Positions 33,400 through 51,777 of a DNA stretch of 64,000 nt are shown piece after piece. Numbering within the stretch: position 1 is the first letter of the stretch; each line of letters begins with the position of its first letter. The notes under the pieces are model-generated. The model made no database searches and was not told the DNA's origin. It saw only the letters and a list, made by a program, of their open reading frames with translations. The DNA comes from Verrucomicrobiota bacterium (GTDB lineage Bacteria; Verrucomicrobiota; Verrucomicrobiia; Chthoniobacterales; UBA6821), in the NCBI GenBank assembly GCA_021413925.1, contig JAIOPL010000015.1, positions 41,409-105,408 of the forward strand, written 5' to 3'. Made by a program: the position numbers and the translations under genes.

Positions 33400-33824
33400 T
33401 TAGCCTGATGGATGATGTAGGTAACAGATCCCCAGATCGTTAGTTCCTGATTCTCACCGACCTCAATGGGGGCGAAGGAATCATTGGCAGCCTCCAAGGT
33501 GATTCTGCCATTTACCTTGCGGAACCGTTTCACGGTGAATTCCCCGTCGATCATGGCCACCACGATCTGACGGTCAGTTGGGGTGACTGACTTATCGACG
33601 ATCAGGGTATCTCCTGTATGGATTCCAGCATCACGCATCGATTCCCCTTTGACACGGACAAGGAAAGTTGCGGCAGGATTGCGGATCAGTTCCTCGTTAA
33701 GGTCGATCCCCCGCTCGAGGTGGTCGTCTGCTGGGGATGGAAAGCCTGCCTCCACGGACGCAGAAACCAGCGGGAGCTTCAGGCTTGTGCGCTTTTCAAA
33801 AGGGACGGGTGTGGAGAGAGACAT
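33396..33824 (-). CDS. umuD: UmuD-like S24 peptidase (polymerase V accessory subunit)
   Basis: VEAGFPSPA contains the Ala-Gly self-cleavage site. GESM provides the Ser nucleophile and the Lys lies in FTVKRF. 142 aa. Confidence 0.9.
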   Translation of the reverse strand: MSLSTPVPFEKRTSLKLPLVSASVEAGFPSPADDHLERGIDLNEELIRNPAATFLVRVKGESMRDAGIHTGDTLIVDKSVTPTDRQIVVAMIDGEFTVKRFRKVNGRITLEAANDSFAPIEVGENQELTIWGSVTYIIHQAK

Positions 33825-33845: not shown

Positions 33846-36230
33846 TCAGATCTGTGAGAGCGATTCAATAGTTGCCGTCACATCTGCAAAAGTGTCTTTC
33901 CATTCTGATTCTACATCATAGTGGTGGGATACGAATCTCACACCGTCAGATTCCACACGGCTGAAAAAGTAGCAGGCATTTTTTGCACTACGAGGCGAAG
34001 GCCCAACCTGAATAAGAGGGAGAAGTTTTAAAGCTCCAGGGGAGCCCTTCTTATACAGATAAAGGCGCTCTACATCGAGCCAGATAGACATTGATCGATT
34101 CTCCTTCAGGAACTCGCTATTGCTCCCCATCTGAATTGAAACCTCATTTTCAAAGAGACCCCGTCTAGGGGTGCATGTTTGGGAGTGAATCAACTGCGTT
34201 TCTACCCATACATCCTCGAAGACCTCACGAAGCTTTTGGAGTTCTGCTAGAAGCATTTCATTCCTGTACCTTGCTTCCTCTGGGCTTACCAAGCCCCCGT
34301 GTCCTTTCCAGTCATTCCTCATTTTATTTGTGGCTGCAAAGATAGGTGAGAGCTCGGGACGGCTTAACATTCTTGGAAGAACCAGGGAGCGATCAGAGAA
34401 TAACTCAGCACAAAGGTCTCTACTGTTGGCGGTTTCCTCAGGGTCCTTCTTCTCTGCTAAGAGTTCTCTTGTTCTAGCGCCAAGAAACTCGCTGACGCAC
34501 TTCCATGTTCCAAATGTAGCGCGCCTGAATGTCAGGTTTTGCTTTTGCATGGCGTTATTGAGCCTTTCTTTGATGGGCGTGAAAATAGGCTCGTTAGAGC
34601 TATAGGCGCTCAGAAGAATAACGCTCAGAAACTCTGCTGTGCCCTCGAAGAAGTCGATCAGATGCTCGTATTTTGATTTGTAATCGTTACTCGGTGTGGC
34701 CTGCCATGCCCTCAGAATAGACGCCATTGGAAATGGAAGGGTCTCGAACCACTGATCGAGTCTCTCCGCTGCATGTTCTTTGACCCCGGTTCCAAGTCTC
34801 TTTGAAAGGACAGCTAGCTTTTTCTCAGCATCGGATGATGAGCTGGGATTTCCCCAAAGATCCCGGCGGATTTCACTCAACTCGCCTTGCAGCGCAAGCA
34901 TCGTGTTTTGCTCCTCAGCAATACGGGCTTCTACATCAAGAACCAGTTGTTGTGTTTTTAGATCAGGAACAAAAACTCCTATGTACTGTAGCGACTCCTT
35001 GTTGAGTCTCGGAATAGTTGATCCCTTTTGGTTGCTGTATCGCAGCTCTTTGCCGAGGTCTGAATTCAGGAACCTTGCTACAAAAGCCGCGCTTGATCGG
35101 CTGGGGTCAATTGTAACCTGAGCATAGTTGTGTGTCTTGATGGCAAGCTCATCAATCGATGTAACGACATCACGGCTTCCGATTAGGGGGATGTAGAGCG
35201 AGTTCTCTCTATCCTCGAAAGCAAAGTCCTTGTCGATTCGTCCAAGTGTAATGGATGTCGAGAGATCGCACAGGGGGATAGCTGCCCCCCCAAATCTAGC
35301 TTCTGCCTCCTTGAGGCGTTCTTCTGCCCTTATTGATGCAAGCCCTCTATATGTGGTCGGTTCAACAAAGCGGCCCATTTCGAGAGAGCCGCCCTCTTTA
35401 CGCAGGGTCATGTTCTCTAGGATCTGTGAGTTCATTTTTTGATCATTGGAGAGTTGACCCACAAACATTGGGCCGCTTTCAGAGCGCGTTATGATCACAA
35501 GAACAGTTGAAATCTCTGTATAGGGAGAAAAAGTCCCCTGAGGGAGGGTCAATGCCGCCTCTGCTTTCAGCCCTATTAACCCGAAATGTCTGAATACCGA
35601 ACGGTTGCTGTTAAAAAACTGGGGTGTAACGATAAATGCACCTATTCCGGTTTCCGGTATCTGTCGCATGGTGTGAACCATCAACAGATGTGCAAAGTCA
35701 TCACGAAGGGTGATTACCCCCTCCTCACCAGCATCTACCTCCAATGGTGAAGAATGCCGAAGACCAAATGGGAGAGATGAGATGATCAGGTCGTATTGTT
35801 TGAAATCCGACTCAAGCAATTGGTGTGTCCCCACACAATGCCACTCGATTTCAGGAAAGAGGATTTTTCCGAGGGAGTATTCACTCTGATTGACAGTAAA
35901 TGCGGAAGCGCTCCTCGCTTCACATAGAAGATTCACATGCCCAATTAGGGATCCGTTACCTGCCCAAGGATCGCAAATTGCTTTCGCATTTCTGATTTTT
36001 GCGAATTCTCCGATGAAAGTAGCTAGCCAGCTTGGGGGTTGGCAGACTCCAGCACCTCGTCCTATACGGCTAGAGAATAGCATTCTGAACTGTTGCACCT
36101 GATCCTCGGGTAATGAGGACATCTTCCTTTTAATAAATCTCGCGAGTTCCTCCGCCCCGAGGAACTCGATCCCTTTCATTTCATCCAGCATAGCTTTCTG
36201 GCTTGGAGTAAGTCTTCTATCAGGGTTCAT
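33846..36230 (-). CDS. Fusion protein: N6-adenine-type DNA methylase core, HsdS-like target-recognition segment, ~330-aa uncharacterised C-terminal domain with Rx5H motif
   Basis: Motif I is ICDPWAGNGSL. Motif IV is the variant DLIISSLPFGL. The TRD-like tail is GSTIPRLNKESLQYIGVFVPDLKTQQLVLDVEARI. The C-terminal domain contains NKMRNDWKGHGG. Confidence 0.7.
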   Translation of the reverse strand: MNPDRRLTPSQKAMLDEMKGIEFLGAEELARFIKRKMSSLPEDQVQQFRMLFSSRIGRGAGVCQPPSWLATFIGEFAKIRNAKAICDPWAGNGSLIGHVNLLCEARSASAFTVNQSEYSLGKILFPEIEWHCVGTHQLLESDFKQYDLIISSLPFGLRHSSPLEVDAGEEGVITLRDDFAHLLMVHTMRQIPETGIGAFIVTPQFFNSNRSVFRHFGLIGLKAEAALTLPQGTFSPYTEISTVLVIITRSESGPMFVGQLSNDQKMNSQILENMTLRKEGGSLEMGRFVEPTTYRGLASIRAEERLKEAEARFGGAAIPLCDLSTSITLGRIDKDFAFEDRENSLYIPLIGSRDVVTSIDELAIKTHNYAQVTIDPSRSSAAFVARFLNSDLGKELRYSNQKGSTIPRLNKESLQYIGVFVPDLKTQQLVLDVEARIAEEQNTMLALQGELSEIRRDLWGNPSSSSDAEKKLAVLSKRLGTGVKEHAAERLDQWFETLPFPMASILRAWQATPSNDYKSKYEHLIDFFEGTAEFLSVILLSAYSSNEPIFTPIKERLNNAMQKQNLTFRRATFGTWKCVSEFLGARTRELLAEKKDPEETANSRDLCAELFSDRSLVLPRMLSRPELSPIFAATNKMRNDWKGHGGLVSPEEARYRNEMLLAELQKLREVFEDVWVETQLIHSQTCTPRRGLFENEVSIQMGSNSEFLKENRSMSIWLDVERLYLYKKGSPGALKLLPLIQVGPSPRSAKNACYFFSRVESDGVRFVSHHYDVESEWKDTFADVTATIESLSQI

Positions 36231-36251: not shown

Positions 36252-39200
36252 TTATCCGACAGCCCGTGTTTTTACGTCATCAAGGATTGAAATAATCTGG
36301 TCAACCTGTGCTGGTTGAAAAACTCCATCCACGCCAAGGGGATTAAAATCAGTATAAGGTGATTCATACAGGCGACCTGCATCCATGATTCCATGTTCAG
36401 TCAGGTGATTCACTATCTCATCCAGAAACTCGATCTGGTTGGCCGTAAGGGCCTGCGTTGAGACAAAGGAATCCAATGCCCCTTTTGCCGCCTCACGATC
36501 CATGCCGACCAGTGAGCGAACAAAAATGCCGAGGCCATGGTTTTCCGCTTTGGCCTTCGCTACATCGGCAGCAGTCCCAATTCCATTCTCGGTCAAGATG
36601 CGCTCCAGCTCACAAAGATCAGAGGCCGTGAGCGGTTCATTGGTCCTCAGCTTGTGGATGGTAATGTGATCCTCATGCTCTCTCAGGAATCGCCTGGCCT
36701 TTTCACGGAAGCGTTCAAAATCCTGCCCCCCGACGACCCCTGGCAGCTCAATCGGCTTCTCTTCGCCCTTCTCATCCTCGAAGTCCGTATAGATCGGCTT
36801 CCGGTTCTTCTTTTCGATGAGCTTAATGAGCAACCGAAGGCGCTTCCTGACATTTTCCAGCAAAGGCACGGTGACATGCTCCCAGTATTCCTCCGTCTGG
36901 ATCTGTTCGATCAGGACCATATGATCCCGTACCATCGGGATGCTTTCCTTCTCTTCAAGTAGCCCCGCTATGGCGATGACTTGATCTCGAAGACGTATAA
37001 AGCCTGGCCCCGTCGTGAGAACCGCCAGCTGGAGATTCAGGATCAACAGATCAAAGCGTTTGGCCTCCTCCTCGTCTGTTTCGATTTCTGATGGAAGTCC
37101 CGCAACCTGACGAGCCAGTTCCTCACCCTGTTCATTCGTGAGGACATCCCAGGAGCTAGGTTCCACATACTTCTCGATCAACCTCCGCTTGGGCCGCACC
37201 ACAAAATTCTCCAGATTCATTCCACTCACCTCCTCATGGAGCAGACCAGCGGTTTCCTTCCGCAGTTCCTCCAGGGCGGTGTTACCCTCCTTGCCGCGAA
37301 CCTCGGCACCGATCTTTTCATCGAGCTCAGCAATTATCTGAAGGCGCTTCACAAAGAGTTTCTTACCGAGCGAAGGAGCAACATTGCCCTCGGTGGCTTC
37401 AGGATTCTGACTGAAGAACTCTAGGTTCTGGCAAAAGTCGAAGATGTAGAAGAACTCCTTGTTCTGCCCGGGTCCGAAAAGATCAGGGCAGAGTCGCGTT
37501 CCTCGACCAATCATCTGCCAGAATTTCGTCTTCGAGCGCACGAGCTTGAAGAAAACGACATTTAGCACTTCTGGGACATCGATTCCGGTGTCGAGCATGT
37601 CTACCGAGATAGCGATATGGGGTGCGCCATCTTTGACGGAGAAGTCCTCGATCAGATCCTGAGCATACTCCGTCTTAAAGGTAATCACCCTGGCGAACTC
37701 TCCCCTGTAGTGTGGGTAGTTGGCATTAAAGCGCTCCCCGATGAACTCAGCATGGGCCTGATTCTTGGCAAAGATGATCGTTTTCCCTAGCCGGTCGCCA
37801 CCAGCCACCTTCTGACCATGGGTCATCAGGTGCTCCAGCACTTTATCGACTGTGTCCTTGTTGAAGAGCCACTTGTTCACCATCTCAGCCTCCACTCGGG
37901 CTGGAGTGTTCCCCTCCTCATCCCACTCTAGGGCATCCCATGCCTCCTTCTCCTCCTCAGAGAGATCATCGTAGGAGATTCCCTCTCTTTGGAACTTCAG
38001 CGGCACTGAGACCGCCTTGGGCGGCACCAAATAGCCATCCTTCACTGCTTCCTCGAGAGGGTAGGCATCCGTGGGAACTCCATTCTCCAACTCAAACAGA
38101 CTGTAGGTATTCCGATCCACCTCATCCTTTGGCGTCGCAGTCAGTCCGACCAAAAGAGAGTCAAAGTAGTCGAAGATCGCCCTGTATTTCTGGAAGACCG
38201 AGCGATGCGCCTCATCGATGATGATCAGGTCAAAGTGCCCTGGGCCAAATCGTCGCTGACCATCCTTCGTCTCATCTATCAGACCCATCATCGTCGGATA
38301 GGTCGACACATAGACGCGGCCCTCCGTCTCCTTCTCGGTCACGAGATTCACGGGCGCAGAGTCGGGCAGATATGCCTTGAAGGCATTCACAGCCTGCTTC
38401 ACCAGAGCGATACGATCGGCTAGGAAGAGAACCCTTTTCGCCCAGTTGCAGCGCATCAGGAGATCCGAAAGAGCAATCACTGTACGAGTCTTGCCTGCCC
38501 CAGTGGCCATAACGATAAGGGCCTTGCGATCATGATCCTTTTGGAAGGCATCACCGATACGTCGGATGGCCCTCTCCTGATAGTAGCGCTCGACGATCCC
38601 CTTGTTAATCTCGGTCCCAGCAAGCGGCTTCCTTGAGGATCGGCGCTGAATCATCAGCTCCAGCTCATCCTTCTTGTAAAAGCCCTGCACAGGTCTCGGA
38701 GGATAGCTCGTGTCATCCCAGATCCAGTGTTCATAGCCATTGGTGTAGAAAATGACCGGCCTGCGCCCATACATCGCCTCCAGACAGTCGGCATAGAGCT
38801 TCGCCTGTTGCTGGCCGACACGGGGATCGCGCTTCGTCCGCTTGGCCTCTACGACGGCGAGAGGGAGCCCGTCATCTCCCCAGAGGACATAATCGACGAA
38901 TCCCTCACTCTTCTCATTGGGCATCCCTGTCACAGGAAACTCCCGATCACGCTCCTGATCGAGAGCCCATCCGGATTCCTTCAGCAGCAGATCGATGAAG
39001 TAGTCCCGAGTCTCTGCTTCCGAGTAGTCGTGATCATCCTCCTGTTTGGCATTTGCCCTCCTGGCTTCCGCGACCTCAGCCCGGAGACGCTTGAGTTCAT
39101 CATCGAGCCCTGCACGCTCCTCCAAGAGGGTTGAGAGTTTCTCATCCTTTTGCTTCAGATCCGATTCCAGCTTCTGAAGTTGTTCAGGATTCTGGGGCTC

Positions 39201-39647
39201 AGCTCCTGAGACTGCGGCAGCCTTCGGTAGCAGCTCCGGATTGAATGCAAGATCCGCAGCAGGCTTCGATCCCTTCCCATATGTCTGGACCAGCCAGTAG
39301 CTCAGATGAAAGAGTTCCTTCACCGCCATCAGGGCATCGTACTGCCGGATTGGTTTATGGCTGTGGACTGCTAGGTTGCCGACTTCCCTGATCAGTTGCA
39401 CCTTGGCAAAGATCATTGGGCCAACTGTATTCCGGAAGCTCGGCTCATGAATCAGAGCGCTGAGATTTTCCTGATAGGGCAGCTTCAGATCCCCATCGTT
39501 CTTGTAGATCCAGTGGACTGCGAGTTCCAGTGACCTCCTCGCATAGAAGCAGGCCGCCCTCGGGTCGGGATAGACCAATGACTCTGACTTAGACGCTGCG
39601 TCCTGCAGAGCAGTCCATTCTGTGGCTAGGAAGGAGAATTGGCTCAT
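36252..39647 (-). CDS. hsdR: Type I restriction enzyme R subunit (N-terminal DUF4145-like, HSDR_N, SF2 helicase, EcoEI-type C-terminus)
   Basis: IREVGNLAVHS is DUF4145-like. EAETRDYFIDLLLKESGW is HSDR_N. Helicase motifs MATGAGKT and IIIDEAHRS. C-terminal LTANQIEFLDEIVNHLTEHG. Confidence 0.9.
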   Translation of the reverse strand: MSQFSFLATEWTALQDAASKSESLVYPDPRAACFYARRSLELAVHWIYKNDGDLKLPYQENLSALIHEPSFRNTVGPMIFAKVQLIREVGNLAVHSHKPIRQYDALMAVKELFHLSYWLVQTYGKGSKPAADLAFNPELLPKAAAVSGAEPQNPEQLQKLESDLKQKDEKLSTLLEERAGLDDELKRLRAEVAEARRANAKQEDDHDYSEAETRDYFIDLLLKESGWALDQERDREFPVTGMPNEKSEGFVDYVLWGDDGLPLAVVEAKRTKRDPRVGQQQAKLYADCLEAMYGRRPVIFYTNGYEHWIWDDTSYPPRPVQGFYKKDELELMIQRRSSRKPLAGTEINKGIVERYYQERAIRRIGDAFQKDHDRKALIVMATGAGKTRTVIALSDLLMRCNWAKRVLFLADRIALVKQAVNAFKAYLPDSAPVNLVTEKETEGRVYVSTYPTMMGLIDETKDGQRRFGPGHFDLIIIDEAHRSVFQKYRAIFDYFDSLLVGLTATPKDEVDRNTYSLFELENGVPTDAYPLEEAVKDGYLVPPKAVSVPLKFQREGISYDDLSEEEKEAWDALEWDEEGNTPARVEAEMVNKWLFNKDTVDKVLEHLMTHGQKVAGGDRLGKTIIFAKNQAHAEFIGERFNANYPHYRGEFARVITFKTEYAQDLIEDFSVKDGAPHIAISVDMLDTGIDVPEVLNVVFFKLVRSKTKFWQMIGRGTRLCPDLFGPGQNKEFFYIFDFCQNLEFFSQNPEATEGNVAPSLGKKLFVKRLQIIAELDEKIGAEVRGKEGNTALEELRKETAGLLHEEVSGMNLENFVVRPKRRLIEKYVEPSSWDVLTNEQGEELARQVAGLPSEIETDEEEAKRFDLLILNLQLAVLTTGPGFIRLRDQVIAIAGLLEEKESIPMVRDHMVLIEQIQTEEYWEHVTVPLLENVRKRLRLLIKLIEKKNRKPIYTDFEDEKGEEKPIELPGVVGGQDFERFREKARRFLREHEDHITIHKLRTNEPLTASDLCELERILTENGIGTAADVAKAKAENHGLGIFVRSLVGMDREAAKGALDSFVSTQALTANQIEFLDEIVNHLTEHGIMDAGRLYESPYTDFNPLGVDGVFQPAQVDQIISILDDVKTRAVG

Positions 39648-39662: not shown

Positions 39663-40466
39663 CTAGGTCCTAATTTTGGGAACTTTTACAACGACATCCA
39701 GCTTTCTGTGGATGAGGGATATCAGCGATAGGTAATCAGCCGCATCATCCTCACCCTCCCAAAGTATCTTTGGCTCATGAGCCAAAGGGTTTCTTACTGC
39801 GGCAAAACAGCCTTTAATTAAAGCGGCAAAACCCTTGTGTTCCGATTGTTCCGTCTCAGTCCGAAGGGAATTGATTGCTAAAATCGGGGAGTCAATGGAG
39901 AAGACGACATCAATGAGCTTGGCCCCGTCATAATGGAATCCTGAAAGGTCTCTGATACGCTGAGCGAGCCCCTTTGACGCCTCAAAAACGGCATGAAAAT
40001 AGTTCTCTTGCAAAAGTTCTGCCTGACAGTACTTCAGCACCTCTGCATGGATCTTTCTTCCTTCAAACTTTGTGCGTATCGTGCGAGCTCTTTTCTCGGC
40101 TTCATCAAGGGTGCGTGCAGTGTCGCATTTCCTCATCTTTCCATCTTTCCCATATTCTAACCCAGAGAAGGAAAGAAGTGCGTTTAGCTGCTGCCGATGG
40201 GATTCAAACTCTTCATTGCGCCCAATAAACCGCGCAGGGATTAGGAAGGATTGGATAAAATCGATAATCTTGTTGGCGCAGGCATGCTGATGCTGGGTTT
40301 TAAGAAATACCCAATAAATCCTACGCCATTTTGTTGATTCACCCGACAAGTCTTCAAGACTGCGATCCTGGAAAACACGGGTGATGTCGGTTCCTGAACC
40401 ACAATTACCGAGTAGTTTGGCAAGGCCCTCAATCTGGCCTTCGGGAAATGGCGGGATCTTACTCAT
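39663..40466 (-). CDS. TIGR02391/Abi_C-like protein with Rx4H (HEPN-type) motif
   Basis: The C-terminal half FHAVFEASKGLAQRIRDL...GFAALIKGCFAAVRNPLAHEP matches the TIGR02391 pattern. That family is documented as associating with restriction loci. Confidence 0.65.
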   Translation of the reverse strand: MSKIPPFPEGQIEGLAKLLGNCGSGTDITRVFQDRSLEDLSGESTKWRRIYWVFLKTQHQHACANKIIDFIQSFLIPARFIGRNEEFESHRQQLNALLSFSGLEYGKDGKMRKCDTARTLDEAEKRARTIRTKFEGRKIHAEVLKYCQAELLQENYFHAVFEASKGLAQRIRDLSGFHYDGAKLIDVVFSIDSPILAINSLRTETEQSEHKGFAALIKGCFAAVRNPLAHEPKILWEGEDDAADYLSLISLIHRKLDVVVKVPKIRT

Positions 40467-40566: not shown

Positions 40567-43500
40567 TCAACCAAGCTCTCCAGAATCGCCCGGCTTGGGA
40601 TCAAGATTCTGGAACTCGAATCGCGCTAGGTTGATTAACACGGATTGTACCTCCACGGCCTGCTTTTTGGCATCCTCACTAGAAGCGAGACCATTGCGTA
40701 GAATCATTTTGATCTCCTCATCCATTCCCCACCAGTAAGGGATCTCTTTTTCTCTATTCTTGTCTGGAAAGACAATTCTATGGAAGCAGTCCATAGCCAC
40801 CTCCGGATAGTTGGCTGAGTATTCGGCCAGCGGCTTGATCACCATGAAGTCATGGCCATCGCCGATGAACGGGCGCAAAATCAGAACTCTTTGAAGAATC
40901 TTCACCGTCCACTCGGCATCCAGCTGCTGGGCGTCCACCCAGGTCCAGAAGCCCTCCAACTCTACAAGTTGGTCGCTTTTGATTCCGGATTGTTCCAGTT
41001 CTCTCAACCGCCACTCCATGAGATTACAAAAACGCTCTTGGACATCATTAGGGACCCCCTCTTTGGTGGTTCTCATACTCCTGCCGATAAAAGTGAGCAG
41101 GTGAGCCTTAAGAGCGACCGTCCCATTCTTGTAGAACCGATCTAGTAGATTGCCTGATGCATCTGGTTGATCAGGAAGGGGAAGATTTCCCCACCAGTAG
41201 TAAGCGGCCAGATGGTGGACGAGACCCTCGCCGGGATCCCACTGACGGGAATCCTTTTCACGAGGATCCTGAGAGATCGATCTGATTGCTCTGACATACT
41301 CTTTCCCAAGAGCCTCAAACGCAGTTTTCGTGGCCCCCTGCATCGTGACGAAGCAGCTCCAGACAGCATTCCTCTCTGCTACACGATCAGCAGGGAAGAG
41401 ATCATCGAGGTGCGTCTCCACCCATTCACGATGGAAATGGAGGAGCATGCCCATCTTTTCTCCGTAGATTCCACGGCCAGCCAGCGTCGGCTCCGCCCTG
41501 AGACGCGCTTCCAGAAGCTCAAGCACGCGCTTCTTCAAGTCATCCCTCTGTGCCCCATCCTCAGAATGAAGAACTCGATCCAGGTCAAAGAGAGCACGCA
41601 TAGCCACCAACCGCGTTGTATTCAGCGATGTCATGGCCAGCTCTCCTGGTGACTCCGTATCCTTTCCATCCTTCTCGGGATCCGGATGTTGTAGGAGCAG
41701 GGCGATACAGCCCAGCAACTGATCCCATGCAGTGCTTGGGAAGTTGACCTCCTTCTTGGAGATCGCTCCTTCCAGACCTCTGGCAATCTCGATTCCCAGG
41801 TTGCGATTCTCAGAGCCAGCCAGCTTCAGGATCACCCCATGGATGGCCCATGCAGTTTCTGTGAGCAGTGAAGACCAATCCAGCGGAGTGCCAGCGAAGG
41901 CTGCCTCGAAGCATCCTTGCAAGATGCTCAGATACCGATCAACAGAGAGACGCTCGTGATCGGATAGGATACGATACTTTTGAATGTCTTTGAGAAAAAA
42001 CTCAGGCTGCTTGAGAGCAGCACTTTTCAGAGCCCCCTGCAGACCCCACTCATCAACCTCATCAAGGTGCTGTTTCTGCTTCCATGCCCTGATTTCAGAA
42101 AGGACCCAATCGTTCGGCTCAGTGAGAATGGTTTCTACCGTAAACGGACTTTCATTCGGCATGATTTGCACATCGCTCTTCCAAGACCTAAAGGCTGGAT
42201 GCCCTGGAGTCTTGAAATGCTCATGCAATTCATTGAATCGTTCCTGCCATTGTTCGGGCAGTTTCCCATTCAGGAGAGAGAGTTGCTGATATTGCCAGTA
42301 ACGTTTCCAGATATCGAGAGTTTCCTCGTCGGGAGGGGCTCCCTCGTGGTCCTGCATGTAATATTCAATGCGAGTAGAGAGATCAGGCCCTCCCTCGATC
42401 CATCCTAAAATCCTATTTTTGTCTTCTTCGACGAGACTGTCGAATTTCTCCTCGAGCATGACGAACCACTCGTGAGGGTTATCCGCTCCCAAAACAGCAC
42501 CTGCATCCAATTCATTGTTAACCTGTTGGATTGCCCCAAATTCCCGAATTAGATGGAGATTCAATCGCTTAAAAATCAGCCAAGGGAAGGCCTTTAATAT
42601 TTCAACTGCTTCATTTAATCGCGCAGGCCGTCCTGATATAACTCTTTCAGATAAGTCGCGGATTCCTATTACGAGATATTCCCTGTGGTCGTAGTCTCGA
42701 AGCTGATCACTAGGCTCTACGGAACCCATCCATATTTCTGAGTAATCATCCCACTTTCTGTCTTCAGAACCTTTATTTACGCCTGAATGAGTGATCGCAT
42801 CCGATAAGAGATCACAGTAAATCTTCAGGAGATTCAGTACATCATCAGGCTGAACCTTCAGAGTTATTTCAGAAACTAAAGATTTGTAATCATATAGATC
42901 CCATATCGAATCGGTTTTTGATATTCTAACAAGTTGATCGAGATCACTTTGAGTATCTGAATCAGAATTTTCCTCTAATTCAAAGTCGAGACGTAGTACT
43001 GCGAGAATTAGATCCGCGACATCTTTGGTGAGACCACTTGAGATCAGATGAGCAATAAAGTTTTGGTATGATAAATGGGATCGCCCAGGATTTCTTTCTT
43101 TCAACCATGCTTTTGCATAGGAGATAAAGTCCGTAGCTAGATTGATTGGAAGTTGGCTTGCAATACCTAGCAGCCTCTGCTGGATGAATGGCGTTGCCCT
43201 CGTTGCTAGCTTCAGAGCAGCTTTCTGTGCTGGATCAGGCGTTTCGACTACAAACTTTTCCAAGAAAAAAACTTCGGGAAGTAGTGGGTTTGGTGAATCT
43301 GGATTAGGACCATATCTTTCCCCAACATCAAACCACCCGTTTTCCAAGAGAATATGAACCCACTTACTATCAGTAATGCATTCAAAGAAGAATACGCGCT
43401 CTGCCCATTGATCAAAAAGAAGATAGATTGCCTCTAATGTATCCCTTGATGGCAGAAATGTTAGTTCTACAATAGTTTTTATCTCATTAAACTTAGCAGG

Positions 43501-44118
43501 TTCATTGGGCCGAAGATATTTTAGAAGAATATTTTCAAGGCTCTCAATTTGTTTATTTAGTGGAAACCTAGATGCCCTAGACTTATGATGAGCATAATCA
43601 GTAAACCGATCATAGAGCTCCTTCCAACTGTTTATATCATCCTCAAACGAGGCTGGCTTAGGACGACTTTTCTGTAGTTTCCTGAGAGTTTTTTCAGCTT
43701 TGGCCAACTTCGGCCCTCGTTCGTTATCAATCCACGTACAAAAATCAAGGAATGAAGAAATAAAGCCTGATAGTATATTGCTATCTAAGTCTTTAAATGA
43801 AGGTTTCTTTTCAAGAAAATAGCTTTCATATTCACTTCGCAGGTTGTTTTCAACATATTGCCCCATGCTAATTCCTCCGCCTTCTCTTCCGATCCAGAAG
43901 TTAGCTTTCTCTATGACTTCCCGAAATCCATGGGCTGATAATGCTTCAAAATCAGAGCATTTGCTAAAACTAACCTCCAATGCCCCTCGATATATATGTG
44001 CTATTCTATTATCATGGTGACTCAATAAATTGAAAACTAATAGAGTTTTCCCTTCTAGTGAAAATTTTCTGGCTCCATCAGTATTACTATCTCCAAAGTC
44101 TGAGGGTTCAAAACTCAT
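40567..44118 (-). CDS. Large (1183 aa) predominantly alpha-helical protein of unknown function embedded in the type I R-M operon
   Basis: Uninterrupted ORF with a 4-nt overlap onto the hsdS stop. No Walker, nuclease or other catalytic motif is recognisable. The Trp/Leu-rich periodic sequence suggests a helical-repeat architecture. The 5' third is more AT-rich. Confidence 0.7.
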   Translation of the reverse strand: MSFEPSDFGDSNTDGARKFSLEGKTLLVFNLLSHHDNRIAHIYRGALEVSFSKCSDFEALSAHGFREVIEKANFWIGREGGGISMGQYVENNLRSEYESYFLEKKPSFKDLDSNILSGFISSFLDFCTWIDNERGPKLAKAEKTLRKLQKSRPKPASFEDDINSWKELYDRFTDYAHHKSRASRFPLNKQIESLENILLKYLRPNEPAKFNEIKTIVELTFLPSRDTLEAIYLLFDQWAERVFFFECITDSKWVHILLENGWFDVGERYGPNPDSPNPLLPEVFFLEKFVVETPDPAQKAALKLATRATPFIQQRLLGIASQLPINLATDFISYAKAWLKERNPGRSHLSYQNFIAHLISSGLTKDVADLILAVLRLDFELEENSDSDTQSDLDQLVRISKTDSIWDLYDYKSLVSEITLKVQPDDVLNLLKIYCDLLSDAITHSGVNKGSEDRKWDDYSEIWMGSVEPSDQLRDYDHREYLVIGIRDLSERVISGRPARLNEAVEILKAFPWLIFKRLNLHLIREFGAIQQVNNELDAGAVLGADNPHEWFVMLEEKFDSLVEEDKNRILGWIEGGPDLSTRIEYYMQDHEGAPPDEETLDIWKRYWQYQQLSLLNGKLPEQWQERFNELHEHFKTPGHPAFRSWKSDVQIMPNESPFTVETILTEPNDWVLSEIRAWKQKQHLDEVDEWGLQGALKSAALKQPEFFLKDIQKYRILSDHERLSVDRYLSILQGCFEAAFAGTPLDWSSLLTETAWAIHGVILKLAGSENRNLGIEIARGLEGAISKKEVNFPSTAWDQLLGCIALLLQHPDPEKDGKDTESPGELAMTSLNTTRLVAMRALFDLDRVLHSEDGAQRDDLKKRVLELLEARLRAEPTLAGRGIYGEKMGMLLHFHREWVETHLDDLFPADRVAERNAVWSCFVTMQGATKTAFEALGKEYVRAIRSISQDPREKDSRQWDPGEGLVHHLAAYYWWGNLPLPDQPDASGNLLDRFYKNGTVALKAHLLTFIGRSMRTTKEGVPNDVQERFCNLMEWRLRELEQSGIKSDQLVELEGFWTWVDAQQLDAEWTVKILQRVLILRPFIGDGHDFMVIKPLAEYSANYPEVAMDCFHRIVFPDKNREKEIPYWWGMDEEIKMILRNGLASSEDAKKQAVEVQSVLINLARFEFQNLDPKPGDSGELG

Positions 44119-45311
44119 AACTTCCCTGAGAAAGCCCTGTGCTGAAGTGAGGCGAAGAGGGTGTCGAGTTCAACCAGGGAGGCGCGTTGGGTAGATTTGA
44201 GCTTTTTAACGGTAGTAACTCGATTGGCGAATTTGCGCTGCAACTCGATTGGTGGAACTGGAATAAGAAACGACCGAATATCGTCAAAGTTCAATCCAGC
44301 TTTCACTGCATGCCGATTCCTCCCAAATACTTGACGCTCACCAGCGGGAGAAGCGAAGTATGCAGAGAGAAATCGTGGAACGAGTGCTTTGCTTCTCAGA
44401 ATCGAAAGATGCTGATTGATGTATGCAGTTCCAAGACCTTCAGGAACGACTGCCGTGCGGCCTAAATCAGCGGTGATGCTTAAAAGAACGTCTCCAGTCT
44501 GAACTCTGGTCCGTTTTGCTTCGGCAGTATCAGGTGCTTTGACAAAGGCAATGTCATCTAGAAGGAGATGATCTCTCCGGACATTTTGGATGCGAAGAAA
44601 TAGATCGCCGGACTCAGAATAGTATTCTGCCCATCCACGAGAACCGCTCGTTAGAAATTCAAGTAACTCCCCCAACTTCTTGGTTGGCCATTTCTCTAAA
44701 ATCGAGGAGGGATCCCCAAACATCTCCAGAAAGATGGATTGGGTTAGGGTGTCGAGTTGGGCGAGAGCGGCGCGGCGCTTGGCTCGAACTTCCTCAGCCT
44801 TATCTAGCACCTCGGCAATACGCTTCTGCTCTTCCAACGGAGGCAGGGGGATTAGCAGTTTCAGGCAACGGTCAAAATTGAGATTTGATATGTTGGTAGT
44901 CTTTTGACCAAAGCTTCTCAAAAGAGCCTGAATCTTTCCCGAAGCAAACCAATGATAGAGATATCGGTTGAATACTTTTCCTTTCTTTCCCCTAAGGACA
45001 GAAATGAAACCTCCAAAGCTAGCACGGTAAGGCAACTGAGGTATCCAGCAGCATTTCCCGACTAGGTTCCAACTGTTTGCACTCGACACAAGAATGTCGC
45101 CGCACTGAAGCATTTGCTCCTCTCTTCTCACAAAAACCTCCCCCACTGCCCATACGTCCGAGAGATGTATTTCCGTCTGAACATTTTTTGTGCGCATACA
45201 CGCCACAGACCCTGGAGTATCCAAGGACACAACATCATCCGGCTTGAAATTGATACCTCGAATGAAGTCAGCAACCTCACCAAGCGCCACCATGGAGGGG
45301 GCTTTTGTCAT
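44115..45311 (-). CDS. hsdS: Type I restriction-modification specificity subunit
   Basis: Two TRD halves, each followed by the conserved helix IPLPPLEEQKRIAEVLDKAEE or IPVPPIELQRKFANRV. 4-nt overlap with hsdM. Confidence 0.9.
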   Translation of the reverse strand: MTKAPSMVALGEVADFIRGINFKPDDVVSLDTPGSVACMRTKNVQTEIHLSDVWAVGEVFVRREEQMLQCGDILVSSANSWNLVGKCCWIPQLPYRASFGGFISVLRGKKGKVFNRYLYHWFASGKIQALLRSFGQKTTNISNLNFDRCLKLLIPLPPLEEQKRIAEVLDKAEEVRAKRRAALAQLDTLTQSIFLEMFGDPSSILEKWPTKKLGELLEFLTSGSRGWAEYYSESGDLFLRIQNVRRDHLLLDDIAFVKAPDTAEAKRTRVQTGDVLLSITADLGRTAVVPEGLGTAYINQHLSILRSKALVPRFLSAYFASPAGERQVFGRNRHAVKAGLNFDDIRSFLIPVPPIELQRKFANRVTTVKKLKSTQRASLVELDTLFASLQHRAFSGKL

Positions 45312-46849
45312 GAGCCAATCATCTCCTCCAGTTCCTTCATCCCGAGGACGATTTCTTTCTCCAGCTCGGCGAGGCTGGCGATGATCTCCTTGGGTGGCTT
45401 GTGGGCCACCAACTCGTGGACGACTTCCTTGTAACGATTCAGCGAGAGGTCGTAGCCCTGGGCCGCGATGTCACCCTTTGGCACGCAGAAGCTCTGGGCC
45501 GTCCGGGGATTTCCTTTCTCTGATCCATCACGCTGGCTCCATCGGGTCAGGAGATCGGGGAGATTATTCTTGGGATGTTCCTCGGTGGAGAGCTGTTCCC
45601 GAGTGACGGAACCGAGCTTCTCAGAGGAGAGTAGTGGGGTGCGCTTGTCATCCAGGCTCCACCCATCAGCGGAGACATCATAGAACCAGACATGATCTGT
45701 GCCTCCGGAGTTTGTCTTGGTGAAGAGCAGGATCGCCGTGGAGACTCCGGCATAGGGCTTGAAAACACCTCCGGGGAGGGAGATGACGGCATCGAGCTTC
45801 TGCTCCTCGACCAGTAGGCGGCGGAGTTCTTTGTGGGCCTTCGACGAGCCGAAGAGGACTCCATCAGGAACGATGACGGCTGCGCGGCCTCCCGGCTTCA
45901 GCAGTCGGAGGAAGAGGATCATGAAGAGGAGCTCGGTCTTCTTGGTTTTGACAACTTGGAGGAGGTCTTTGGCACAGTTCTCGTAGTCGAGGGATCCGGC
46001 GAAAGGAGGATTAGCCAGAACGAGGGTGTATTTCTCCTCTTCCCCAGCATGATCCTGTCCGAGGGAGTCGCGGTAGCGGATGTCGGGATTCTCCACTCCG
46101 TGGAGCTGCATATTCATGCTGCCGATACGGAGCATGGTGTTGTCGAAATCGAACCCATGAAACATCCCCTCGTGAAAGTGCTTCCTTAGCGCGGTATCCC
46201 GCAGGATCTCGGGGTGGTGGTCACGGAGGTGCTCTCCCGCGGCCACGAGGAAGCCGCAGGTGCCGCTGGCTGGGTCGCAGATGACATCCTTCGCTGTAGG
46301 GGCCGTCAGCTCGACCATGAGCTGAATGATGTGGCGGGGTGTCCGGAACTGACCATTCCTGCCGGCCGAGGCGATCTTTCCGAGCATGTACTCGTAGAGA
46401 TCTCCCTTGGTATCCCGGTCCTCCATGGGGATGTGGTCGATCATGTCGACGACCTTGGCCAGTAGGGAGGCCTTCGGGATGGTGAAGCGGGCATCCTTCA
46501 TATGATGCGCGTAGGTGGAGCCATCTCCGCCGAGGTTGCGGAGGAAGGGGAAGACATGCTCACCGATCACCGCAAACATTTCTGCAGGGGCGAAGTTCCT
46601 GAACCGTGACCAACGCAGATCCTCATAGGAGCGTCCTTTGGGATCTTTCCCCTCGGGGAAAATACGTCTCTCAATCGACTTACCCAGGCGAGCCGCCTTG
46701 CTCTCCTCCAAAGTCTGAAGATCATCCAAGCGCTTCAGAAAGAGCAGGTAGGTGATCTGCTCGATGACCTCCAGGGGATTGGAGAGCCCACCTGTGGCAA
46801 ACTCATTCCAGATACGATCAACTTGATTGCGAATTTCCCCGGTCAGCAT
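45308..46849 (-). CDS. hsdM: Type I restriction-modification methylase subunit
   Basis: HsdM N-terminal pattern ITYLLFLKRLDD. Motif I is DPASGTCGFL. Motif IV is LANPPFAG. Confidence 0.92.
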   Translation of the reverse strand: MLTGEIRNQVDRIWNEFATGGLSNPLEVIEQITYLLFLKRLDDLQTLEESKAARLGKSIERRIFPEGKDPKGRSYEDLRWSRFRNFAPAEMFAVIGEHVFPFLRNLGGDGSTYAHHMKDARFTIPKASLLAKVVDMIDHIPMEDRDTKGDLYEYMLGKIASAGRNGQFRTPRHIIQLMVELTAPTAKDVICDPASGTCGFLVAAGEHLRDHHPEILRDTALRKHFHEGMFHGFDFDNTMLRIGSMNMQLHGVENPDIRYRDSLGQDHAGEEEKYTLVLANPPFAGSLDYENCAKDLLQVVKTKKTELLFMILFLRLLKPGGRAAVIVPDGVLFGSSKAHKELRRLLVEEQKLDAVISLPGGVFKPYAGVSTAILLFTKTNSGGTDHVWFYDVSADGWSLDDKRTPLLSSEKLGSVTREQLSTEEHPKNNLPDLLTRWSQRDGSEKGNPRTAQSFCVPKGDIAAQGYDLSLNRYKEVVHELVAHKPPKEIIASLAELEKEIVLGMKELEEMIGS

Positions 46850-46899: not shown

Positions 46900-47550
46900 C
46901 TAGTTAGTAAGGCGCTTTTGCCGGGCAACTGCCCTCTTTAGAAAGTCCGTGTCGGCCAAGGGGATGGTGGTCGTGAGGTCATTCATCCGGACCTCCACGC
47001 TCTGATGATCCTCGGAGAGGTGAGCTGGGAGGATGGTACCGGCAGAGACTGTACTTCGCACAGTACCTCCTGAAACGGAACCCGTGAACTCGACCGGCTT
47101 GAGCAATCTCACTTTCTTGGGCCAATAAGGGCTCTCAGGGAAGGGCAGAGGAGTCGCAGTAGGTGCCGGGGTAGGCTGGGGCGTGGGTGTGGCCGAGGCC
47201 TGCGGGGTTGCCGTTGGCTTTGCCGCGGGTTTCTTATCGGCGGGTGACTCTTTACCGCTGTTTACGCACATGCTGATGCCACCCAGAACGAGTAACAGCA
47301 CGATGATCTGCCCAAGGCATCCGGCACATCCTGAGCTTTCTGTTGTTGAAGGAGAGGAGGAGTGACCTGAGGTCTCGGTGTAGGAAAGACCAGTGCCAGG
47401 AATTCCCACGGTGGTGCGACTGCCTCTGGGACCACCTACCGTGTAGTGGGCACCTTTGCCTCCAAAGCTGAGTGACGAGCTCTTCTTGCCAATGTTCCAA
47501 AGAACCCCGGGGAAGAGCTTGATGCTGCGGCGGAAGCGGAAGAAACCCAT
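46900..47550 (-). CDS. DUF4236 domain membrane protein
   Basis: MGFFRFRRSIKLFPGVLWNIGKKSSSLSFGGKGAHYTVGGPRGSRTTVGIPGTGLSYT is the DUF4236 signature. A TM helix and a Pro/Thr-rich linker follow. Confidence 0.72.
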   Translation of the reverse strand: MGFFRFRRSIKLFPGVLWNIGKKSSSLSFGGKGAHYTVGGPRGSRTTVGIPGTGLSYTETSGHSSSPSTTESSGCAGCLGQIIVLLLVLGGISMCVNSGKESPADKKPAAKPTATPQASATPTPQPTPAPTATPLPFPESPYWPKKVRLLKPVEFTGSVSGGTVRSTVSAGTILPAHLSEDHQSVEVRMNDLTTTIPLADTDFLKRAVARQKRLTN

Positions 47551-48512: not shown

Positions 48513-48838
48513 GCCGGGGCGTGATTCCCACCCATGCGGGTGATGACAGCGACGGGAAAATCTGGGGTGTCGAAGGGATCAACATCCTCTTCCTGCTCGG
48601 AAGCGGGATGATCGGCCTCGGGCTCGCGCTGATGCTCTCGCACAGTCATGACCCGGCAAGCTGCGTAGTGATCGGAGCCATGCCGTTTGCGGTAACGGCT
48701 CTCTACATCTTCACCCTCCGTCAGGGGAAGCCGAAGTCCTTCGACACGGACCTGCTCGAAAGCCTCCTCTGCGGGAGCGGATGGACGGCCCCGCGTAAGC
48801 AACACCGCAACCCCCTCCATACCCATGCAGGCTCCTAA
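48509..48838 (+). CDS. VirB3/TrbD-like small membrane protein
   Basis: ATGA overlap with the pilin-like gene. Two TM helices. Overlaps the start of the VirB4-like gene. Confidence 0.5.
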   Translation: MSRGVIPTHAGDDSDGKIWGVEGINILFLLGSGMIGLGLALMLSHSHDPASCVVIGAMPFAVTALYIFTLRQGKPKSFDTDLLESLLCGSGWTAPRKQHRNPLHTHAGS

Positions 48839-51527
48839 CGGCTGGATCTCCCACGATCTGCTGATCTGGAACGAACTCGATAGCCGTGGAGCCGTCTCCA
48901 AGGGGTATGTAATCGACGCACCAGATCTGCGGCACGCAAGCGAACATACGCTCGATGGCTTCTACGAGTCTGTTCGGCAGTTCCTTCATTCGCTCGATGA
49001 ATCAACCAGATGCCAAATCCGATGGTCGGTCGATTCCGATTACCGAGATGAGCTGATCGCCTACAAGGAAGTGACCGACGAGCGGTGTGATCCTGCGTCT
49101 TGGTCAGCAATCACACGCAACGAGCGCTTCAATCGCTACTGGAAGGCAATGCAGTCCGGGGGACTGCGCCGAGAAAAGCTCCTGCTCTTCTTATCCAAGA
49201 AGATCGATGCCGATCCTCCATCGTCCCCTTCCAGGAAGGGCCTGGAGGAGCACTACAACCGACTCCTCTTCCAATATAACGAGGCCTTCTCCCAGCACGG
49301 GAGGGTGATTGCCTCTCTCTTTGATGGGCATGGCTGCCGGGTGACAGCGATGGGGACGGAGGATCTCTATCGGCATTACGCGACCTTCTTCAATCCCTCC
49401 TACCTACGCCGGGATGGCTATGATCCGATCGGGCAGTTCCGTGAGGAGGAAACCATCCACCAGAACTGCTGGCACCAAGGGGTACAGGCTGGGAAGAACT
49501 TCGGGTTCTACTCGGATGGCTTCTACCACAATCTTGTAATCCTCAAACGCCGTCCGCAGAAGACGAGGAGGGGCATCTTTTGGGCACTGACCTCGCTTCC
49601 TTTCCTCGACTACGCGATCACGGTCAATCTTTACCCCCAGAACGTCCGCAGGGAGATCGACAAAGCGGAGAAGTCGCTTGAACGGGTACGAGGGGACTAC
49701 GCGGCGGAGGGAAAACATTCGCTTTTAACTTCCAAGGGAGTGAAGGAGGAGCGCATCCGCAACCTCGCCCAAGGCGATACGGTTCCCTTCCTCTATGATT
49801 ACGTGGTTCATGTATGGGACGCGACCGAGGAGGGTCTCGTCTCCAAGACACGGCAAATCGAAACCGCCTTCGGCCAGATGGAGGATGCCCAATGTTGGAC
49901 GAGCAATCTCTCCTCGGCGGCAACGACAAAGAACATCTGGTATCAAACGTGGCCGGGATGGCTCTGGGGGAAATACACCCACCATGCTGACAGCGGCCTC
50001 GATGAATGGCTGGCTGACCTACTTCCTTTCTCCTCCACCTTCACAGGGCATCTGGAGGGAGCGGAGGCACTTTACGACGGCTCCAATCGGAACCTTGTGG
50101 GGGTAAGGAACTTTGTTTCAGGAACGCCGCAACTTGCGGTTCTGCTTGGGATGACGAGGGCCGGGAAGTCGGCCTTCATGTGCGATCTGTTATCGCAGAC
50201 GGATCCCTACTACGACTTCACACTGATCGTGGAGGAGGGCCTCTCTTACGGGATCTGGACTCAGGCCCAAGGTTTGGGGAGTACCCCGATCATCATTCAG
50301 CCCGATGGGGATCTCTGCCTGAATTACCTCGATACCCAGGGAGCCCCGCTAACCAATCTACAGATCACGACCGCTGCGGCACTGGTGGCCAAGATGGCAG
50401 GCAATCCAGCCGATGAAGATCGTAGGAACCTGCGACTTGCTCAGATCACCCAGTACATCGAGCAGCTCTACACGGATCGCTTCGAGGAGTGGATCTCTGA
50501 GGATGGTACCCGGCTCGACATGGTGGCCCGCCATGCCATGGCGGTCCTGGAGTACAAATCCCGCCACATGCCGCTCTCGGCTACTTTTCTAGAGGCCTGG
50601 ACGGAACTGAAGCACACGGCGACCGATGAAGAACGGCAGGACCTTCTAGTGGCGCCCAAGGGGGAGGATGTGTCGCGCTTCATTAAGTCGCATGACATGG
50701 AGCGCCATGTCCGCAACACGGCATTCGCGTTCTTCGGGCCTACGGACTACCCAACCCATGACATGCTCCAGCAGATGATGCTGGTGGCTCCCTTTGCGGA
50801 GCATAATCGGGATGAGATCAATCATCTGGCGACACTCCTCGCACCTTGGAACGAGCAACGGCTGCTCTGCGGTCACTCGACGCTCTCCATGACCGGACGG
50901 GTGGCTCACTTCGATCTGACCTACATCCCTGAGTCTAACAAGCAGCTCAAGGAGTTGGCGGGGTTCCTCATCGCCAACTACGGACGCCAACACATCATCA
51001 CGCTCCCCCGAGGAGCTCGTAAGCGGGTGATCTTCGAGGAGGTGGCAAGAACCTTGGACGTGCCGGGTGGTGAGCAGCTAGTGAGCGAGTTCTATGCCCA
51101 GCTCTCGAAGTTCTCCACATGGATCATCTCGATTGTCCAGCAGTACAGCCGCTTCCAGAACTCGGGGATCCGTCCGATCGTCTTCGGTAACGCCAAGCAG
51201 TTCTTCTTCACCCGCATGAATGATCGCAGGGACATCGAGGATGTCGCACGGGATATCGACCTCTCGGATGCGACCAAGGAAGCGGTCTCCCGCTATCCGC
51301 TGCCGGAGCATTTGCCGGAGCACAACAAGTACGCAGCTCTCACCTACTACCACCTCGATGTGCAACAGGCGCGGTGCGGAACGATCCACAACCGGGTCTC
51401 TCCCGAGATGCTCTTCTGCTCCTCCTCAACGGGACAGGACTTTGATGAGCGCAGCAGAAAGCTCCGCAGTCACGACGACATCGTGGCTGGCATCCTCCAA
51501 GAAACCACCCAACCCCAACACAAATGA
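48825..51527 (+). CDS. virB4: VirB4/TrbE/TraC-family type IV secretion ATPase
   Basis: 900 aa. Walker A is GMTRAGKS. The Walker B-like region is KRVIFEEVARTL. Size and operon position fit the family. Confidence 0.88.
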   Translation: MQAPNGWISHDLLIWNELDSRGAVSKGYVIDAPDLRHASEHTLDGFYESVRQFLHSLDESTRCQIRWSVDSDYRDELIAYKEVTDERCDPASWSAITRNERFNRYWKAMQSGGLRREKLLLFLSKKIDADPPSSPSRKGLEEHYNRLLFQYNEAFSQHGRVIASLFDGHGCRVTAMGTEDLYRHYATFFNPSYLRRDGYDPIGQFREEETIHQNCWHQGVQAGKNFGFYSDGFYHNLVILKRRPQKTRRGIFWALTSLPFLDYAITVNLYPQNVRREIDKAEKSLERVRGDYAAEGKHSLLTSKGVKEERIRNLAQGDTVPFLYDYVVHVWDATEEGLVSKTRQIETAFGQMEDAQCWTSNLSSAATTKNIWYQTWPGWLWGKYTHHADSGLDEWLADLLPFSSTFTGHLEGAEALYDGSNRNLVGVRNFVSGTPQLAVLLGMTRAGKSAFMCDLLSQTDPYYDFTLIVEEGLSYGIWTQAQGLGSTPIIIQPDGDLCLNYLDTQGAPLTNLQITTAAALVAKMAGNPADEDRRNLRLAQITQYIEQLYTDRFEEWISEDGTRLDMVARHAMAVLEYKSRHMPLSATFLEAWTELKHTATDEERQDLLVAPKGEDVSRFIKSHDMERHVRNTAFAFFGPTDYPTHDMLQQMMLVAPFAEHNRDEINHLATLLAPWNEQRLLCGHSTLSMTGRVAHFDLTYIPESNKQLKELAGFLIANYGRQHIITLPRGARKRVIFEEVARTLDVPGGEQLVSEFYAQLSKFSTWIISIVQQYSRFQNSGIRPIVFGNAKQFFFTRMNDRRDIEDVARDIDLSDATKEAVSRYPLPEHLPEHNKYAALTYYHLDVQQARCGTIHNRVSPEMLFCSSSTGQDFDERSRKLRSHDDIVAGILQETTQPQHK

Positions 51528-51775: not shown

Positions 51776-51777
51776 CC

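Follow-up and report, generated by a model that had tools for sequence, protein, structure and literature searches.

Dsr1, reportedly the defence-associated sirtuin 1 of Garb et al. 2022, joins in a single chain an N-terminal effector and a C-terminal alpha-solenoid sensor of about 900 residues, and has no STAND NTPase. Its sensor was treated in a Nature paper of July 2026 (PMC13581612), in which the Avs7 sensor was found to be common to Dsr1 and to non-STAND fusions, with the major capsid protein as the trigger. That study catalogued 9,097 such sensor proteins, split ones included, and described the sensor as a bilobed, sharply bent solenoid enveloping the HK97-fold major capsid protein; SeAvs7 senses EF-Tu as well as the major capsid protein. 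At least 20 alternative N-terminal effectors were reported joined to the Avs7 sensor, effector-associated domains were among the N-termini, and the split and non-STAND versions included a 'HEPN-like' fusion from Streptomyces. Restriction-modification (R-M) receives 0 mentions in the main text of that paper. R-M operons carry second-line toxins of the HEPN, DOC and RhuM types, including Ymh (PMC3710099), and PD-lambda-3 is a two-gene abortive-infection system whose PD-Lambda-3_A has been reported as a PD-(D/E)XK nuclease (PMC13190303, PMC10952713). Here, we analysed a 64,000-nucleotide (nt) stretch of a Verrucomicrobiota bacterium (contig JAIOPL010000015.1, positions 41,409 to 105,408), hereafter the window, in which a type I R-M operon holds an open reading frame (ORF) for a protein of 1183 residues between hsdS and hsdR.

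This ORF probably encodes an anti-phage protein of the Dsr1/Avs7-sensor superfamily that unites effector and sensor in a single chain, its gene being cargo of the R-M operon. The analysis established its homology to a described sensor, the modular nature of its N-terminus, a conserved polar signature therein and recurrent coupling of the family to methylase and specificity genes of R-M systems. Rather than a novel type of partner for restriction, the gene is most likely a backup module against phages that is complete in itself.

The sensor assignment comes from profile comparisons. The PADLOC model of Dsr1 (PDLC04166) matched residues 316-948 with an E-value of 3.1e-21, the alignment spanning profile positions 424-1022 of 1227 and thus the non-SIR2 part only, and the NCBIfam Dsr1 equivalog gave a weak local match (E 4.4e-7), scoring 28 bits where the cutoff is 1400. 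The PADLOC Dsr1 model was also matched by 33 of 35 diverse full-length relatives, with a best E-value of 7.5e-58. Judged by these alignments, residues ~226-1176, predicted to form an all-alpha solenoid, are homologous to the sensor at the C-terminus of Dsr1, and the protein can be classed as a member of the wider Dsr1/Avs7-sensor superfamily of effector-sensor fusions; taken together with PMC13581612, it therefore belongs to a superfamily that has already been described. The original prediction had proposed an undescribed sensor or scaffold that fits none of the classes of effectors known from R-M loci. The word 'sensor' suits about 80% of the protein; 'undescribed' does not survive the publication of the superfamily, and the poor fit to known classes is contradicted by the two Dsr1 models that match the rest of the protein.

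The target shares with Dsr1 the layout of a single chain with an N-terminal effector and a large C-terminal solenoid, and likewise has no STAND NTPase. In contrast to Dsr1, it has no SIR2 match in Pfam, PADLOC or NCBIfam, its alignment beginning at profile position 424; its N-terminus is a helical module of 225 residues with an R-E...H-H signature, and its gene is embedded in an R-M operon and translationally coupled. As it fails the SIR2 test, it is therefore not Dsr1. The relation of its sensor to that of Avs7 would run through Dsr1, according to PMC13581612, and not through direct comparison. Unlike Avs7, the target has neither an NTPase nor a Walker A motif; it is therefore not Avs7, and its activation cannot proceed through STAND tetramerization.

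The protein is 100% identical to NCBI MCE9588142.1, from a Verrucomicrobia metagenome-assembled genome (MAG). It had been described as Leu/Trp/Glu-rich and helical, without a Walker A motif, and these statements were borne out: Leu, Glu and Trp make up 12.0%, 8.7% and 2.9% of the residues, and a motif scan found neither Walker A nor DPPY. Pfam searches of three sub-fragments returned no match even at E 10, NTPase families included. A full-length AlphaFold2 model from a 35-sequence alignment was an all-alpha solenoid (predicted local distance difference test score, pLDDT, 76.4; predicted template modelling score, pTM, 0.51), and in the sensor region most blocks of 10 residues had a pLDDT of 75-95. 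When this model was compared with the PDB by Foldseek, only generic HEAT/ARM solenoids (CAND1, importin-beta) appeared, at template modelling scores of ~0.2, and no DSR2, Avs or Dsr1 entries were among the matches; the PDB copy compared runs to 2026-04-08 and contains no Avs7 or Dsr1 structure. Sequence searches of the PDB found no match with either the single sequence or a 35-sequence profile, and phage records yielded no homologue.

Word-indexed protein searches retrieved seven close relatives at 64-73% identity, all from metagenomes or MAGs, plus one at 22%. Such searches gave the same 8-9 proteins only, and an exhaustive search of representatives was needed to see the family: among 1.84 billion cluster representatives (50% identity), the profile picked out 4548 relatives with E<=1e-3, of which 1667 reached E<=1e-30. 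The full-length homologues at 64-73% identity and the 4548 representative relatives together indicate that the gene is real. Splitting the top 150 representatives with hidden Markov models (HMMs) gave ~45 proteins with the same N-terminal module (hereafter N-module) as the target, ~70 consisting of the sensor only and ~25 with other N-termini. The sensor-only proteins are ~960 residues long and start at about query position 220, and the other N-termini span 180-240 residues. One sensor is thus combined with several partners: the N-module, PIN_12, Thioredox_DsbH, nothing, or the N-module as a separate gene. The sensor also occurs in archaea, where a 1483-residue protein of Haloferax mediterranei plasmid pHM100 (L094, 5267-9718) ends in a sensor of the same type and has a weak nSTAND_NTPase5 match at residues 187-316 (E 9e-4); this protein may be an Avs7-like STAND receptor of archaea.

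The boundary of the N-module was set from the HMM splitting and from the sensor-only relatives that begin at about query position 220. Seven proteins with other N-termini were scanned: PIN_12 was present in four of them (E 1e-14 to 6e-23) and a DsbH-like thioredoxin domain in one, and two had no Pfam match. Sensor-only genes are preceded by an overlapping gene of ~210 codons that matches the N-module HMM, and this split arrangement was seen in L012/L014, L045, L048, L049, L052, L053, L055, L069, L072 and other loci. Since the N-module occurs as a split-off gene and PIN_12 takes the same position, it is an autonomous unit that can be exchanged for a known nuclease domain. In an alignment of 31-35 sequences sharing 15-27% identity with the target, residues Y43, R66, E67, H177 and H178 of the module are invariant, lying in the motifs 'A-A-H-S-L-R-E-L-x-E-K' and 'A-H-H'; R66 and H177 stay invariant when stand-alone N-module genes are added to give a 54-sequence alignment. 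Because of this conserved polar signature, and with PIN_12 at the same position in sister proteins, the original prediction's finding of 'no catalytic signature' is not supported. We infer that the N-module acts as a nuclease or another toxic enzyme, its enzymatic fold being putative.

A separate AlphaFold2 model of the N-module reached a pLDDT of 75.7 and a pTM of 0.62, with the helices at 23-72 and 158-202 above 90. We considered HEPN as the identity of the module and rejected it: the R171-x5-H177 spacing in the target is lost in relatives, which have Q, E, K, S or D in place of R171, and hhalign comparisons with the DUF4145 and Ymh domains of the locus itself gave probabilities below 1%. 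No HEPN structure was among the Foldseek matches of the module. A weak PADLOC match to Csx1 (E 1.5e-4) was discarded as well, as no other test reproduced it. The homologue on the Streptomyces NBC_00212 plasmid has 1090 residues and a shorter N-terminus with a similar W-Y...H-L-F-R-E-L...Y-A-H-R pattern, and hhalign aligned this N-terminus with the N-module at P 0.003 over 66 columns. It may correspond to the 'HEPN-like' class of PMC13581612.

Within the window, the ORF sits where it was first placed, between hsdS and hsdR, in the slot that second-line effectors occupy in R-M operons, as the original prediction had pointed out. The minus-strand gene order is DUF4236 gene, hsdM, hsdS, the 1183-codon ORF, a 100-nt gap, the Ymh gene and hsdR. 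The sequence around position 44118 reads ...ggaagttATGAgt, and the end of hsdS reads ...gttATGAgt; from the ATGA at the junction, the start of the ORF therefore overlaps the TGA of hsdS by 4 nt, again as described before. A pattern scan of the coding strand from hsdM to hsdR found no strong terminator-like site, which is consistent with a single hsdM-hsdR transcript. The coordinates of these features are listed in Table 1.

Table 1. Features of the R-M operon and of the 1183-residue protein, in window coordinates (aa, amino acids).
Feature	Position	Strand	Description
1183-residue ORF	40567..44118	-	1183 aa, ATG start; N-terminal helical module + Dsr1/Avs7-type sensor
N-terminal module, aa 1-225	43444..44118	-	helical bundle, putative effector, weakly pP_pnuc_1-like
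R66-E67 codons	43918..43923	-	invariant across N-module family
H177-H178 codons (AHH motif)	43585..43590	-	invariant across N-module family
Sensor, aa 226-1176	40591..43443	-	alpha-solenoid homologous to Dsr1 C-terminal sensor
ATGA overlap, hsdS stop/ORF start	44115..44118	-	4 nt
hsdM	45308..46849	-	513 aa; N6_Mtase + HsdM_N; PADLOC MTase_I E 1e-188
hsdS	44115..45311	-	398 aa; Pfam Methylase_S; PADLOC Specificity_I E 9e-88
Ymh/TIGR02391 HEPN gene (PD-Lambda-3_B-like)	39663..40466	-	267 aa; Pfam Hypoth_Ymh 6e-43, PADLOC PD-Lambda-3_B 4e-78, TIGR02391 2e-34
hsdR	36252..39647	-	1131 aa; ResIII, HSDR_N, EcoEI_R_C, N-terminal DUF4145 (HEPN); PADLOC REase_I E 3.5e-178

Base composition changes along the gene. 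Over the first ~1500 nt the GC content is 0.37-0.42 and the GC content at third codon positions (GC3) ~0.30, and in the 3' part these values are 0.52-0.56 and 0.53-0.65. The AT-richness that had been noticed at the 5' end is thus real, and its extent is ~45% of the gene and not a third. All four members of the close clade have the same step, which is therefore an ancestral mosaic and not a recent insertion in this genome. The GC3 step (~0.30 to ~0.58) lies close to codon 500, within the sensor rather than at the border between the domains, both in the window (42600-44118) and in L001, L003 and L006, and protein identity within the close clade is lowest in the first 200 residues and around residues 500-600. 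It looks as if an ancestral recombination swapped the N-module together with the first sensor lobe.

The close clade comprises the window, L001/L002, L003-L005 and L006, and in 4/4 contexts the order is hsdM-hsdS-gene-...-hsdR. All of these operons share the DUF4145-bearing hsdR, and the gene starts either with a 4-nt overlap with hsdS or 9 nt after it. The second insert before hsdR varies: the window has Ymh there, L001 and L006 have DUF6088 together with AbiEii, and in L003-L005 the place is empty. No Ymh gene was found in the other 92 loci; the TIGR02391 gene, whose co-occurrence with the ORF had been put forward as a possible link, is therefore not a conserved partner, and the Ymh HEPN gene is an independent, interchangeable insert. 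The Ymh gene is alike to PD-lambda-3 in that it matches PD-Lambda-3_B over its full length, whereas the 1183-residue protein matches no PD-Lambda-3 model, PD-Lambda-3_A included.

This variation bears on the possibility that the N-module is non-enzymatic and serves as an adaptor that recruits or releases a toxin acting in trans (the Ymh HEPN RNase here; AbiEii, PIN, HNH or Fic elsewhere). The next gene is often small and toxin-like, being Ymh in the window, DUF6088 with AbiEii (L001, L006), PIN (L022), HNH (L059) or Fic (L030); the module has no recognisable enzyme fold; and an adaptor would have company in the effector-associated domains found fused to the sensor (PMC13581612). We nevertheless regard an adaptor as unlikely. 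Downstream neighbours are heterogeneous across the loci (four Fic, three PIN, two RhuM and two HNH, otherwise housekeeping or transposase genes), with deformylase, enoyl-CoA hydratase and transposase genes among them, which rules out a conserved downstream effector, and in L003-L005 nothing stands between the gene and hsdR. Moreover, an invariant R-E...H-H set would be unexpected in an adaptor with changing partners, and in sister proteins the place of the N-module is taken by PIN_12, a genuine nuclease domain.

To survey neighbourhoods beyond the close clade, we scanned GTDB representative genomes with a 13-sequence sub-clade, which gave 78 loci, of which 76 were tabulated; this tabulation samples the P0008-like clade and its neighbours, not the whole superfamily, and leans towards MAGs of defence-rich symbionts. 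The loci came from Poribacteria, Latescibacterota, Dehalococcoidia, Binatia, Nitrospirales, Verrucomicrobiota, Gammaproteobacteria, cyanobacteria and others. R-M neighbours of type I, type III and Eco57I-like kind were called with jackhmmer seeds. By raw count, R-M genes lie within 10 kilobases (kb) in 34 of the 76 loci (20 type I, 8 type III and 7 Eco57I-like, one locus being counted twice), a figure that is a lower bound because the seed set is blind to some R-M types; same-strand R-M genes lie within 3 kb in 30/76, and the remaining 42/76 have no seed-detectable R-M gene within 10 kb. Four-nucleotide overlaps with an upstream hsdS, mod or Eco57I-like gene recur in L006, L022-25, L045, L050, L060 and L065, and in L022 the order is mod-gene-PIN-res (type III). 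For the loci that lack type I genes, 43 upstream neighbours were independently scanned against Pfam, which returned N6_N4_Mtase (6), TypeIII_RM_meth (5), Eco57I (5), MmeI_Mtase (3), BsuBI/PstI (1) and AAA_21 (4). Distant members follow another type of hsdR by 40-600 nt (L008, L009, L012) or a FokI gene (L011), and in L007, by our reading of the translation, the gene is next to a Mod-like methylase fragment with a DPPYN motif.

PrrC and EcoprrI are the precedent for guard logic in R-M systems, and PARIS senses Ocr. By analogy, the solenoid could dock on the methylase/specificity complex or bind Ocr/ArdA, with the N-module firing when R-M is attacked; the protein would then be a genuine functional partner of R-M, in line with the original prediction. 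What keeps this idea alive is the tight coupling, that is the recurrent placement directly after hsdS, mod or Eco57I-like genes with 4-nt overlaps, together with the position between hsdS and hsdR in 4/4 close-clade contexts. Still, members of the family accompany R-M systems of three types with unrelated mechanisms, and two distinct families of hsdR; this breadth and the 42/76 loci without detectable R-M genes argue against a specific protein-protein interface. In addition, the homologous sensors of Dsr1 and Avs7 are reported to be triggered by capsid independently of R-M (PMC13581612), and R-M operons are known as general carriers of unrelated toxins (PMC3710099). We therefore judge a guard of R-M to be distinctly unlikely. 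The same counts speak to the original prediction of a dedicated type I partner: homologues do lie between hsdS and hsdR throughout the close clade and near R-M genes in 34/76 loci, and a dedicated type I role is not supported, given the coupling to type III mod and Eco57I-like genes, the FokI neighbour and the 42/76 loci with no detectable R-M. An anti-anti-restriction role, for which there is no direct support, is possible.

A more general version, a PrrC-like 'guarded R-M' spanning all three R-M types, would have the solenoid dock on methyltransferase/specificity modules, with the 4-nt coupling reflecting co-assembly; we rate it as improbable. The corollary that an anti-restriction attack releases the R-E/H-H module as a toxin of new helical fold, the solenoid then being not, or not only, a capsid sensor, is to be doubted just as strongly. 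Least of all do we expect a non-defence helical scaffold or decaying cargo, that is a HEAT-like housekeeping or mobile-element protein hitch-hiking in defence islands, for although Foldseek matches are to generic solenoids (CAND1, importins), a number of the GTDB copies (L066, L068, L070, L073, L078) are split or contain frameshifts and the window adjoins T4SS and umuDC genes typical of mobile elements, the protein has specific and highly significant homology to the Dsr1 defence sensor, PIN_12 fusions, a strong R-M and defence neighbourhood and a full-length ORF kept in the close clade at 64-73% identity.

For the favoured effector-sensor protein, we propose, by analogy with EcDsr1 and SeAvs7 (PMC13581612), that the bilobed solenoid would bind a conserved structural protein that phages make late in infection, the HK97-fold major capsid protein being the likeliest ligand. 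Ligand binding would then relieve autoinhibition or drive oligomerization of the N-module, and the activated module would damage nucleic acid or another essential target and abort the infection. Through co-transcription and translational coupling with hsdMS, one mobile unit could thus supply two lines of defence, the first being restriction of unmodified DNA and the second protein sensing of phages that are modified or armed with anti-restriction. Such a backup role agrees with what has long been held of R-M operons, that they carry latent toxins, for example PrrC/RloC as well as Ymh, DOC and RhuM (PMC3710099). The target resembles these inserts in being a putative latent toxin gene inside an R-M operon as a second line, and Fic/DOC, RhuM, PIN and Ymh genes occupy the same slots around its homologues. 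Unlike PrrC/RloC, it has no ABC-ATPase or HEPN anticodon-nuclease match in Pfam, NCBIfam or PADLOC and would sense by means of a large solenoid, and control by R-M proteins is without support.

In favour of this explanation, PF18165 (pP_pnuc_1, 'predicted pPIWI-associating nuclease') is weakly matched by 23/35 relatives at E<=0.01, with a best E-value of 4.3e-7. Several observations weigh against it. The PF18165 matches span only profile positions ~10-41 of 133, a helix pair with the Y-x-G-A ... R-E motif, the target itself has no PF18165 match, and the single bit score seen (P0013) was 24.8 against a gathering threshold of 26.3. The PF18165 family is itself only a prediction, our literature search found no paper on pP_pnuc_1, and N-module genes have no Argonaute context. 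Foldseek comparison of the N-module with the PDB and BFVD gave best E-values of 0.5-1 and hence no structural relative. With a pTM of only 0.51 for the full-length model, the bilobed, sharply bent shape is assumed. Finally, the link to Avs7 and capsid sensing is transitive (target to Dsr1 to Avs7) and comes from one paper, and the ligand specificity of this divergent clade, ~20% identical to other members, may differ.

Apart from these points, several homologous loci show further arrangements. In a Poribacteria locus (L032, 10001-16585), a full-length gene for N-module plus sensor is directly followed by a sensor-only paralogue of 961 residues, both downstream of a type III mod gene. The type I operon of L009 (1-11558) holds KwaA (Kiwa), a 303-residue ORF, a TIR_2 protein and an AAA_14/DUF4143 ATPase between hsdS and hsdR, with the sensor homologue 40 nt after hsdR, an extreme case of an R-M operon as carrier of defence genes. 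In L030, L043, L048, L051 and L079 (~8000-10000), hsdR-hsdM-hsdS is followed by a 626-residue AAA_15/AAA_21 ATPase and then the sensor gene, the start of which the ATPase gene overlaps or abuts; this ATPase could be a co-functioning component in its sub-clade. In L030, a Fic gene and a gene for an AEP-TOTE primase-helicase come after the sensor gene.

The operon in the window has neighbours of its own. Directly upstream of hsdM on the same strand lies the DUF4236 gene (46900-47550, -), encoding 216 residues with a Pro/Thr/Ala-rich, low-complexity middle; a 247-residue ORF holds the equivalent position in L003-L005. Residues 27-110 of HsdR are a DUF4145 (HEPN-clan) domain fused to the nuclease-helicase, a fusion kept in all operons of the close clade (L001, L003, L006, L059). 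Downstream of hsdR by 22 nt is a 794-residue ORF (33846-36230, -) without a Pfam family, which has weak PADLOC matches to the MADS mad2 methyltransferase (residues 41-263, E 9e-9) and to type I specificity subunits (residues ~340-460). Its C-terminal ~330 residues match nothing and hold an 'RNDWKGHG' motif, and the ORF is missing from the homologous operons of L001, L003 and L006. Its product could be a fusion that is methylase/specificity-like and ends in an uncharacterised domain. A 249-residue gene (32650-33399, -; 32% GC) with a C-terminal DUF4145 (HEPN) domain overlaps by 4 nt a umuD-like gene for an S24 peptidase (33396-33824), has on its other side a umuC-like gene for an IMS polymerase (31363-32637), and looks like a HEPN toxin-like insert within a umuDC operon. 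Operon and surroundings thus contain up to three HEPN-type modules, at the HsdR N-terminus, in Ymh and in this 249-residue gene. On the opposite strand beside the operon (48825-52638, +) lie a 900-residue ORF without a Pfam family and a gene for a 286-residue protein matching Pfam T4SS (E 3.7e-5). The T4SS match and the umuDC genes suggest a conjugative or integrative element that carries the R-M/defence cluster as cargo.

The locus adds no new category, as both the sensor family and effector swapping were published in 2026. What appears to be new relative to the main text of PMC13581612 is the uncharacterised N-module without a structural relative and the systematic embedding in R-M operons. 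If our explanation is correct, Dsr1/Avs7-type protein sensors would join PrrC/RloC, Ymh, DOC and RhuM as second-line cargo of R-M systems across the type I, type III and Eco57I-like classes, and the operon would be a concrete case of layered immunity, DNA-level and then protein-level, that is inherited as one unit. The N-module would be a new helical effector module of ~225 residues with an invariant R-E...H-H signature and no structural relative, and one receptor could be compared directly across its forms, whether fused, split, reduced to the sensor or with PIN in exchange. These forms occur in poorly studied phyla, among them Verrucomicrobiota, Poribacteria, Latescibacterota and Dehalococcoidia, in which defence systems have rarely been characterised.

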